DNA of 35,905 nucleotides, from assembly GCA_011620765.1 (NCBI GenBank), contig WOYO01000005.1, positions 1 through 35,905 of the forward strand, given 5' to 3'. The position numbers and the translations under genes were made by a program. Position 1 is the first letter of the stretch, and each line of letters starts with the position of its first letter. The notes under the pieces are model-generated. The model ran no database searches. It saw only the letters and a program-made list of their open reading frames with translations, and had not been told where the DNA came from. The DNA is from Thermoplasmata archaeon. GTDB lineage: Archaea; Thermoplasmatota; UBA186; UBA287. This document shows, piece by piece, positions 16,286-18,094 of this stretch.

Positions 16286-16917
16286 CGTTTATTTAACTTT
16301 GTCTCAAGGATCTCTTTGCACTCAAAGAGATCCTTTGCACAATAATCTGCCTCTGCGCTCTGAGAAAAAACAAGAACGGTTTTGAAACCTGATGCTTTTG
16401 CCCCTAATATATCCCTCTCCAAGGAGTTGCCCACAAATACTCCAGTGCTTAAATTGCTCTTACGCAGAGCCAGTTCGAATATCCTTCTATCTGGCTTTGC
16501 ATAGCCTGCTTCTTCGCTTGTTGTTATAGAGGAGAAATATCCGCGTATCGGCTTTATCTGAAACTCTATGTACTGCGTATCAGCATCGCTTATCATGCCT
16601 GCGGGAGCAAAAGCCTCCAGGAGCTCAATAGCGCCATCATTTAACCTCACATACTTCTTATGCATTCTGAAGTACTCCTCCAGAAACCAGTTTGTTGGAC
16701 CATTCTTTACCCGGCTAAGGAACCAGTCCTGTGCTATCTCTAAAGTGTTGTACCACCTGCCTCCGGCAACATTTTTCTGCATTGCCTTGTTGTAGCTTGC
16801 CAAAAGCTCTTCAGCATCAAAACCATATCTCTTTTCTATGGCTTTCATAAGCTCTTCATGCGCTCTCTCATCACTCTTTTCATCCATGAGCGTGCCGCCA
16901 AAATCAAAGAATATCAT
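16282..16917 (-). CDS. HAD-superfamily hydrolase, subfamily IA
   Basis: [38 protein letters not shown] overlap with hrb. Confidence 0.85.
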
Positions 16918-18094
16918 ATTCGCCTCCAGCCAGTATAGAGAGAAAACTTAGAACCTCTTCATGATCCTTAAATAAATATCGAGCTTTCGTCTCCCTCCTC
17001 CCGACAGCTATTGTTATGCCTCTATCCCCTACGGCTTCAAAAGCCGGCTCATCGCTGTTATCATCCCCTATATATATGCAGAGGCACGAGTTTTCAGAGA
17101 GCAGAAACTGAACCACTTTGCCCTTGTTCCATCCTTCATCAGGTCTAAATTCTACAATCTTTTTCCCATACTCTATATGCATATTGTCCAGGTCTAAACC
17201 TTCGAGCATTCTTCTAAACTCATCAAAAAATTCTCCTTCATCGGCGTTCCTGTAGTGAAGCGCTATGCCAAAGGTCTTATCCTCTACCACCACTCCTTTC
17301 GTCTTCATCCCATTGAAGTGCTCATACAATCTTTTTACAGTCTCTCTGTATTGATCAAAGCGCTCTTCAGGTTCCTTTACCCTATAAAACTCGAATCCAT
17401 GATTTGCCACTACAGGTAAATCCAGATCAAGAACGCTTTTTATTGATCTCATAGATCTGCCAGTAACTATGATCACCTCATCCTTCAATCTTTTAAGTAT
17501 CTCCTTACCTTTCTCCCTCAGCACAGCATCCTCTGGGTTTTTTGTTATAGGCACCAGGGTTCCATCGTAGTCCAGCAGCAGCAACCTTTTTTCAGCCCTG
17601 AGCGCTCTTTCAGCCATCGCCAGCTTCTCAAAATCTTTTGCCATGATCTCTCTCTTACCATAAAAAGCCATGGATGGATGGTATGAGATGAAAAAGTGAT
17701 CGACAAATGTGCCATGGTATTTATCTAAGCTCATTTTCCCCAGAAACGATTCTATAGCCGTAGAGCCTAGAAGCGCAATTATCCCTGGCTTCACCATTCT
17801 TATCTCCTCCTTTAACAGAGGCAAGCATCTTGCAATTTCGTCTTTTTTTGGCTTCCTGTTCCCAGGCGGCCTGCATTTGACAACATTTGTTATGTATAAA
17901 CTCTCTCTATCTATTCCTGCCCTCTTCAACAGACCATCAAGCTCTTTCCCTGCTTTTCCCACAAAGGGTATGCCAGAAGCTACCTCTCTTTCTCCCGGAG
18001 CCTCCCCTATCAGCATAACCGGTGCGCGCTCATTCCCGTAGCCATAGACCGCCTTTGAGGCTAGAGGACAGCCATTGCACTCATTTCTCTGCAT
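16904..18094 (-). CDS. Fusion of a family-4 uracil-DNA glycosylase (N-terminal) and a trehalose-6-phosphate phosphatase-like HAD IIB domain (C-terminal)
   Basis: UDG4: CNGC, IGEAPG, PFVG, TNVVKCRPPGNR, C, YHPS. OtsB-like: LDYDGTL, VTGR, NHGFE, EDK..ALHYR, GKKIVEFRP..NKG, IGDDNSDEPAF. Confidence 0.88.
   Translation of the reverse strand: MQRNECNGCPLASKAVYGYGNERAPVMLIGEAPGEREVASGIPFVGKAGKELDGLLKRAGIDRESLYITNVVKCRPPGNRKPKKDEIARCLPLLKEEIRMVKPGIIALLGSTAIESFLGKMSLDKYHGTFVDHFFISYHPSMAFYGKREIMAKDFEKLAMAERALRAEKRLLLLDYDGTLVPITKNPEDAVLREKGKEILKRLKDEVIIVTGRSMRSIKSVLDLDLPVVANHGFEFYRVKEPEERFDQYRETVKRLYEHFNGMKTKGVVVEDKTFGIALHYRNADEGEFFDEFRRMLEGLDLDNMHIEYGKKIVEFRPDEGWNKGKVVQFLLSENSCLCIYIGDDNSDEPAFEAVGDRGITIAVGRRETKARYLFKDHEEVLSFLSILAGGEYDIL

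Follow-up and report, generated by a model that had tools for sequence, protein, structure and literature searches.

A uracil-DNA glycosylase fused to a trehalose-6-phosphate phosphatase-type domain in a Thermoplasmata archaeon

Introduction

The locus described here raises the question of why an enzyme that would remove uracil from DNA and a phosphatase of the trehalose type should be encoded by one archaeal gene, and whether such a gene is genuine at all. The gene lies on contig WOYO01000005.1 of a Thermoplasmata archaeon (GenBank assembly GCA_011620765.1), and the whole stretch of DNA that was analyzed, positions 1 to 35,905 of the forward strand (35,905 nucleotides), is referred to below as the window. 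A reading made from the letters only (the sequence-only reading) had described a family-4 uracil-DNA glycosylase (UDG) joined to an OtsB-like trehalose-6-phosphate phosphatase (T6PP) domain of the HAD-IIB type, and had proposed either the fusion of two formerly adjacent genes or the repurposing of the phosphatase. According to the analysis presented here, the fusion combines two known families in a domain architecture that is apparently new, rare and conserved in one small lineage. The explanation that we favor, with a probability of about 0.7, is a bifunctional protein that retains two independent ancestral activities, arose once and was stabilized by an evolved interface.

Domain composition of the fused gene

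The gene, its two domains (each delimited by Pfam, NCBIfam, PDB and Foldseek) and their main motifs are located as follows.

16904..18094, minus strand: entire fused gene, 396 aa, ATG start, stop codon at 16904-16906
17597..18094, minus strand: family-4 UDG domain, residues 1-166
16907..17596, minus strand: OtsB-type T6PP domain, HAD-IIB, residues 167-396
17993-18007, minus strand: GEAPG, residues 30-34
17672-17680, minus strand: HPS, residues 139-141
17558-17572, minus strand: DYDGT, residues 175-179
17249-17257, minus strand: HYR, residues 280-282
17123-17125, minus strand: K324
17051-17068, minus strand: GDDNSD, residues 343-348

As first described, the gene forms one unbroken 396-aa open reading frame (ORF), and all of the UDG and HAD motifs that had been named are present, including TGR (residues 211-213) and NKG (residues 323-325) in the T6PP half, with both catalytic sets intact. 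Pfam placed PF03167 (UDG) on residues 18-157 (126.1 bits, E 1.4e-36) and PF02358 (Trehalose_PPase) on residues 173-364 (108.1 bits against a cut-off of 27, E 4.9e-31). The proposed family identities of the two halves agree with the curated NCBIfam models, since the fusion passed the cut-offs of both TIGR00758 UDG_fam4 (145.4 against 125.3 bits) and TIGR00685 T6PP (129.8 against 68.05 bits, nearly twofold). The score for TIGR03914, the model of UdgX (a covalent uracil-DNA binding protein), was 108.3 bits, below its cut-off of 189.95. In public records, the fused protein is labeled solely as “trehalose-phosphatase” or “DNA polymerase”.

Authenticity of the fusion

A homologue search covering 5.8 billion proteins revealed, among the 120 best matches listed, 11 other fused protein clusters with both Pfam domains (P0002-P0010, P0012 and P0013), of 369-439 aa and 50-90% identity, originating from NCBI, JGI, ENA and Logan. 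Two further clusters are fragments with the T6PP domain alone, namely P0011 (218 aa, marked “partial” by its source) and P0014 (243 aa). In the resulting 12-row fusion alignment, the catalytic residues of both halves are invariant. Three of the 11 fusions (P0006, P0007 and P0009) begin with MLIGEAPG and hence without the first two Cys residues, and these short N-termini are taken to reflect the start-codon call. Close relatives possess the fused gene rather than two separate ones, and the same holds for contig C19 of a congeneric genome (G002) and for a metagenome locus (L100).

The junction itself, at positions 17560-17650, is bridged with no gaps by contigs from three public runs belonging to at least two studies: X1 record 8 (17373-18700), and the RNA-library contigs X12 record 13 (17340-17671) and X15 record 19 (17141-17650). 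Neither a stop codon nor a frameshift, either of which would have pointed to an artificial join, was observed there. RNA-library contigs may derive from DNA and are by themselves no proof of transcription, and no expression is claimed. The run contigs show a single indel: one minor X1 contig has 6 nt inserted in frame at 17364, a change that corresponds to the two-residue “GF” indel setting the window protein and P0002 apart from the other fusions.

Comparison of the window with G002:C19 (77% protein identity) gave proportions of nonsynonymous (pN) and synonymous (pS) differences of 0.105 and 0.716 for the UDG part and of 0.154 and 0.837 for the T6PP part. Both halves are under purifying selection, with few replacements while synonymous sites saturate. 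For the T6PP half and the whole gene, dN/dS was dropped and pN and pS are used instead because of this saturation (pS 0.78-0.84). Purifying selection has acted on the fusion over a span in which synonymous sites became saturated and the proteins diverged to 50% identity.

Conservation of the UDG half

Residues C6, C9, C74 and C90 align with Cys residues of the structures 1ui0 and 1l9g and are presumed to be the 4Fe-4S ligands; they are conserved in each of the nine full-length fusions and in 32-37 of the 37 standalone UDGs compared. The GEAPG stretch (30-34) and H139-P140-S141 are invariant in the fusions; we take GE(A/G)PG to be motif A and HP(A/S) to be motif B with the catalytic His. PDB sequence matches of this half were 1ui0 (E 6e-31) and 4zbx, and its alpha/beta fold in the AlphaFold2 model, which has a mean predicted local distance difference test score (pLDDT) of 86.8, was matched by Foldseek to 1ui0/1ui1 with template modeling (TM) scores of 0.81-0.82 on the target. 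Over the family-4 UDGs of Thermus thermophilus (UDGA, 1ui0), Sulfolobus tokodaii (4zbx) and Thermotoga maritima (1l9g), the common fold is reflected in TM scores of 0.75-0.82 on the target, an rmsd of 1.7-2.6 Å and 39-40% identity, and the fusion shares with these enzymes the four Cys residues, GEAPG, HP(S/A) and a complete C-terminal helix.

A column comparison of nine fusions (the three N-terminally short rows having been dropped) with 37 standalone family-4 UDGs showed that 44 of the 45 columns conserved to at least 80% in the standalone enzymes keep the majority residue in the fusions. The single differing column is the change of HPA to HPS, which also occurs in four standalone enzymes. 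A survey of the 87%-complete source genome for further udg copies, which the sequence-only reading had recommended, returned one gene of the UDG superfamily, namely the fusion itself.

Conservation of the T6PP half and the trehalose pathway

The PDB matches of the T6PP half were 5gvx and 1u02, and in the Foldseek search 5gvx ranked first and 1u02 gave a TM score of 0.76. The HAD-IIB core plus cap and motifs I-IV are alike in the fusion and in the OtsB-type enzymes of Mycobacterium tuberculosis (OtsB2, 5gvx), Thermoplasma acidophilum (Ta1209, 1u02) and Salmonella (OtsB, 6upb), and HYR, GK..VE.RP and W.KG are held in common with M. tuberculosis OtsB2. No variation occurs among the 12 fusions at D175-x-D177-G-T, T211-G-R, K324 and G343-D-D-x-x-D348, and 58-59 of 59 standalone T6PPs have these residues as well. 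In these 59 enzymes, 52 columns reach a conservation of at least 80%; the fusions keep the majority residue in 48 of them, and 47 of these 48 are identical across 12/12 fusions. The kept cap and core residues include H232, G233, E271, K273, H280-Y281-R282, E315, P318, W322 and K324; the four differing columns are 228, 230, 347 (T to S) and 350. Family-wide column conservation was used in place of the trehalose-6-phosphate (T6P)-binding residues numbered for the Brugia malayi T6PP because that numbering was not reliably transferable (PMC4081830).

The window had been noted to lack otsA, the gene for trehalose-6-phosphate synthase, and this was confirmed; otsA was found elsewhere in the genome, as a standalone 511-aa ORF on contig C50 (G000:C50:5068-6402; PF00982, 404.6 bits). 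By-eye candidates in the otsA flanks on C50 are a glycine-betaine-type ABC transporter with a CBS-domain ATPase, a PfkB-type sugar kinase and a partial alpha-glucosidase-like gene, and part of this contig reads N. In the comparison of 41 Thermoplasmatota genomes (the source genome, G000, and 40 relatives), OtsA exceeded the cut-off in seven. It is standalone in three genomes of the genus in question (G000, G001 and G002), lies in frames of 748-787 aa that also hold a T6PP match in G003, G021 and G039, and shares one contig with a T6PP in G040. The OtsA-OtsB fusions (TPSP) of G003, G021 and G039 have the T6PP domain and the pathway in common with the fusion described here; however, their T6PP is joined to the preceding enzyme of the pathway, whereas in the present case it is joined to an enzyme of an unrelated process and OtsA stands by itself (511 aa). 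The fact that the OtsA of this genus is without its usual linked phosphatase, and that a T6PP domain is instead located on the UDG, fits a role of the fused domain in the OtsA pathway.

The predicted domain interface

The part of the junction to which the following comparison refers was delimited by PDB alignment, the structure model and column comparison.

17597..17653, minus strand: last UDG helix, residues 148-166

The stretch DFEKLAMAERALRAEKR, which had been regarded as a short linker between the domains, is indeed present, but its role as a linker was not upheld, for it belongs to the UDG itself, of which it forms the C-terminal helix. Its counterpart in the alignment with the solved S. 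tokodaii family-4 UDG (4zbx, query 6-159 on chain 17-186 of 194) is the C-terminal helix of that enzyme, and in the AlphaFold2 model of the whole fusion, built from the 12-row alignment (mean pLDDT 86.8, predicted TM score 0.84), helix 148-166 has a pLDDT of about 95 and leads straight into the first HAD-fold strand, 170-175. The shortest standalone family-4 UDGs end 25-35 residues past HP(A/S), and the distance from HPS to the first HAD strand in the fusions is 33 residues. Residues D154, F155, M160, A164, L173 and L174 at the junction are invariant in the fusion alignment.

When the two domains were folded as separate chains, they were docked with an interface score (ipSAE) of 0.86 in 3/3 runs against 0.01 for the best of three controls, with a contact agreement of at least 93% and a partner pLDDT of at least 83. 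Of 80 solved complexes, 58 attained this docking mark, as did 2 of 110 mismatched pairs, counts that hold only roughly because the author's own alignment was used. The predicted contacts involve UDG residues 95, 98-99, 104-105, 117, 129-133 and 156-166 and T6PP residues 168-170, 338-340, 360, 372-376 and 380-396, and none of these residues belongs to a catalytic motif of either domain. On the UDG side, M160 and A164 of the fusions are mostly K or E in the 37 standalone UDGs; on the T6PP side, S383, S386 and I/L387 are mostly K, R or E in the 59 standalone T6PPs. Hydrophobic or small residues at these positions in the fusions only form the pattern that would be expected of a newly buried surface. 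The closest known family-4 UDGs (1ui0, 4zbx and 1l9g) are standalone proteins of about 180-220 aa, whereas the last UDG helix of the fusion is predicted to be buried on another enzyme, and M160 and A164 replace K/E there. Taken with the models, these data support a rigid, apparently co-adapted unit of two domains without a flexible linker.

Distribution and origin

A profile made of the 12 fusions was compared with 1.84 billion representatives clustered at 50% identity, and one protein spanning both domains was found (P0008, 723 bits), the next matches being single-domain and scoring no more than 182 bits. Among the 41 Thermoplasmatota genomes, a full-length fusion match was obtained in two, G000 and its congener G002, and none was obtained in G001, the third genome of the genus (63% complete). 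The other matches in this set cover one half only, the UDG frames being about 115-810 aa (many of them about 190-210 aa) and the T6PP matches in the other genomes being located in frames separate from the UDG. A scan of GTDB species genomes with the fusion alignment, in which near genomes may be left out, gave no fused gene among the best 80 of 576 relatives, all 80 being single-domain, and added little to the representative-protein search. A metagenome pattern scan for FF[VI]SYHPSM[AT]F yielded one locus, L100, which is useful for synteny and too small a sample for mapping the clade. In the literature searched, no description of a pairing of UDG with T6PP was found, and both enzyme names occurred together only in a plant transcriptome study. 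The view that this architecture is undescribed was sustained by the literature searched, and the fusion occupies one 50%-identity cluster among the 1.84 billion representatives.

Known T6PPs are standalone, fused to OtsA or contained within OtsB1-like proteins, and in the same search of 1.84 billion representatives none of these was found on a DNA glycosylase. Family-4 UDGs often occur as the N-terminal partner of a fusion. Scanning of 10 long matches with an N-terminal family-4 UDG revealed five fusions of the known UDG-exonuclease-family A polymerase type, two unusual ones (P0185 and P0259), which comprise one of UDG and methylpurine DNA glycosylase (386 aa) and one of UDG and Mur ligase (674 aa), and three proteins without a second Pfam domain. 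The partners are mostly DNA enzymes and in none of the 10 is a HAD phosphatase; at the same time, the existence of the UDG-Mur ligase and other UDG fusions means that an unrelated partner is not without parallel.

With regard to origin, an ancestral udg-otsB pair was sought within ±1.5 kb of the UDG loci of nine other Thermoplasmatota genomes, and no T6PP adjoined the UDG in any of them, so that the proposed fusion of two formerly adjacent genes gained no support from these loci; no oxidoreductase or other HAD neighbor was found at these nine loci either. The best reading of the distribution is that the fusion arose once in a small Thermoplasmatota lineage and has been kept since.

Proposed function and alternative explanations

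In the bifunctional protein favored here, the UDG half would flip out uracil and excise it from DNA, thereby starting base-excision repair, and the HAD half would dephosphorylate the T6P supplied by the standalone OtsA encoded on the other contig, giving trehalose. The two would be held in rigid packing, with the last helix and beta-hairpin of the UDG against the last helix of the HAD core, and since no predicted contact residue lies in a catalytic motif, the two activities are most likely independent of each other. As each half is a textbook enzyme, the fusion is probably ordinary in chemistry, no new chemistry is expected, and the interest lies in the architecture.

Several points weigh against this explanation. 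The genome encodes a second T6PP-type domain within a 1278-aa protein on contig C7 (C7:44047-47883), in which DYDGT, HYR and GDD.TDE are intact and which outscores the fused domain in the Pfam genome search (167 against 109.7 bits). This putative OtsB1 (Rv2006)-like protein has further N- and C-terminal modules, and its T6PP-type domain is 36% identical to the fused one. Because of its existence, a partnership between the fused domain and OtsA cannot be taken as demonstrated, and the fused domain could be redundant, with the C7 protein as a possible alternative source of T6PP. On the UDG side, the fusion scored 144.9 bits with the archaeal UDG equivalog NF040953, below the cut-off of 250, and with a genome 87% complete, “sole UDG” means that no other was found. 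The standalone sets for both halves were picked from the best matches to the fusion's own profile, which therefore biases the column comparisons toward similarity. The interface rests on structure models derived from a 12-row alignment, and the distance of the contacts from the active sites was judged from the list of contact residues. Both enzymatic activities, and their independence, are what we infer.

The best placed of the alternatives, in our view still an unlikely one, is functional coupling, in which binding of T6P or trehalose would modulate uracil excision, or DNA binding would localize or gate the phosphatase. The co-adapted, confidently modeled interface in place of a flexible linker would suit such coupling, as would the retention of the fusion with a conserved junction helix down to 50% identity and the surrounding iron-sulfur and redox genes (oxidoreductase, flavin reductase-rubredoxin, SufC and SufBD). 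However, packed interfaces without allostery are common among fused enzymes, the listed contacts exclude the catalytic motifs of both domains, no precedent appeared in the literature searched, and the fusion of a family-4 UDG to an apparently unrelated Mur ligase shows that odd partners occur. If coupling were true, it would represent an unexpected regulatory link from stress-solute metabolism to genome maintenance, and repair capacity would track osmotic, thermal or oxidative stress. A more elaborate form, an integrated stress module whose interface would signal to the glycosylase that the T6P site is occupied, or to the phosphatase that DNA is bound, is rather doubtful; were it true, compatible-solute metabolism and base-excision repair would for the first time be directly linked. 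That stress ties trehalose to the repair of deaminated DNA is, at this point, speculation.

Quite improbable is the repurposing of the phosphatase, by which the HAD half would no longer act on T6P and would instead process dUMP, 5'-dRP or a 3'-phosphate DNA end. HAD phosphatases do work in DNA repair elsewhere, as exemplified by the phosphatase domain of polynucleotide kinase-phosphatase; the second T6PP-type domain of the genome could free the fused one to change; and the HAD hydrolase encoded downstream bears a weak likeness to the YjjG-type pyrimidine nucleotidase model (59.9 bits, cut-off 159.9). Against this, the T6PP-family residues, including those of the sugar-enclosing cap, are retained in 12/12 fusions (48/52 columns), TIGR00685 was passed at nearly twice its cut-off, and OtsA, standalone in the source genome, is present in 3/3 genomes of the genus. 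Capped HAD-IIB sites are, moreover, poorly suited to macromolecular ends. Repurposing toward repair chemistry, as suggested earlier, is disfavored by the capped active site and by the preservation of the T6PP-specific residues.

It is just as improbable that one of the halves has become a pseudo-enzyme and is retained only because it aids the structure or solubility of its partner. The presence of a second, better-scoring T6PP-type domain could be cited in favor of this view, as could the reported finding that of two OtsB homologues in M. tuberculosis only OtsB2 has true trehalose-6-phosphate phosphatase activity (PMC5095139), although this cannot simply be carried over to an archaeon. At the same time, the catalytic residues of both domains are invariant across 12 fusions, pN is far under pS in both halves, and the fusion is the only UDG found in the genome. 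Finally, an artefact, whether an assembly chimera or a sequencing error that erased a stop or frameshift between two genes, might be suspected from the fragmentation of the assembly into 101 contigs and from the start of contig C4 of G002 at about residue 181 of the gene, near the domain boundary, but is refuted for practical purposes by the recurrence of the fused frame in 11 other clusters from four sources, in G002:C19 and in L100, and by the gap-free contigs of three runs across the junction.

If the two activities are uncoupled, the fusion offers a clean natural case of unrelated enzymes that evolved a packed interface after fusion, and it shows that deducing a functional link from a gene fusion (the “Rosetta stone” argument) may lead astray. 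In practical terms, the current record names mask what is apparently the sole UDG of this organism (87%-complete genome).

Gene neighborhood and allelic variation

The genes surrounding the fusion, and the position at which nucleotide identity to a congeneric locus changes, are the following.

19390-20553, minus strand: 2-oxoacid:ferredoxin oxidoreductase alpha, upstream
18593-19393, minus strand: 2-oxoacid:ferredoxin oxidoreductase beta, upstream
18081-18602, minus strand: 2-oxoacid:ferredoxin oxidoreductase gamma, with a 14-nt overlap with the start of the fusion
16282..16917, minus strand: PH0459-like HAD-IA hydrolase, 211 aa, downstream, its start overlapping the stop of the fusion by 14 nt
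15563..16285, minus strand: flavin reductase-rubredoxin fusion, next gene after the HAD hydrolase
17950..18010 (approximate), no strand: step in nucleotide identity to G002:C19, about 95% above and 64-83% below

The oxidoreductase alpha, beta and gamma genes, the UDG-T6PP gene, the HAD hydrolase, flavin reductase-rubredoxin, SufC and SufBD form a tight co-directional string. The order oxidoreductase-fusion-HAD is repeated in G002:C19 and in L100, the fusion of which is about 51-52% identical to that of the window, and the HAD hydrolase directly follows the fusion in 3/3 loci. This hydrolase is homologous to the uncharacterized Pyrococcus protein PH0459 (1x42, E 2e-24) and is 69% identical between the window and L100, against 51-52% for the halves of the fusion. 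Its motif I reads DFGGT, in which Gly occupies the usual place of the general acid/base Asp.

Relative to G002:C19 (L098, compared over 15567-20793), identity is about 95% in the oxidoreductase genes (dS about 0.2) and 64-83% across the fusion, the HAD hydrolase and flavin reductase-rubredoxin, where synonymous sites are saturated. The step at about 17980, within the first ~40 codons of the fusion, looks like a recombination breakpoint at which divergent fusion-HAD-rubredoxin alleles would have been swapped. The G002 genome (5% contamination) carries two alleles of the locus, C19 being the divergent one, which is out of synteny with the window past the rubredoxin gene. The other, G002:C4:1-5959 (L099), is collinear with window positions 17555-11608 and 92.5% identical over the full 5.9 kb.

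The fusions of ~50% identity (L100 472-1785, minus strand; P0010, P0012 and P0013) carry an extra basic C-terminal tail of 30-45 residues ending in IEDWG or IEDWD, which may faintly resemble a C-terminal PCNA-binding motif. The segment 13621-16285 (minus strand) encodes flavin reductase-rubredoxin, SufC and SufBD; with the oxidoreductase and the UDG, both Fe-S enzymes, these genes give the surroundings an iron-sulfur and redox flavor. About 3-5 kb from the fusion, at 11628-13617 on the plus strand, a phosphoglucomutase/phosphomannomutase gene and a 232-aa xylose-isomerase-like TIM-barrel gene are located. The latter (12919-13617) was considered as a candidate endonuclease IV on the basis of a Pfam AP_endonuc_2 match and was rejected, as no nfo model of NCBIfam was matched; its best NCBIfam match was CbiR, with 53 bits against a cut-off of 105.

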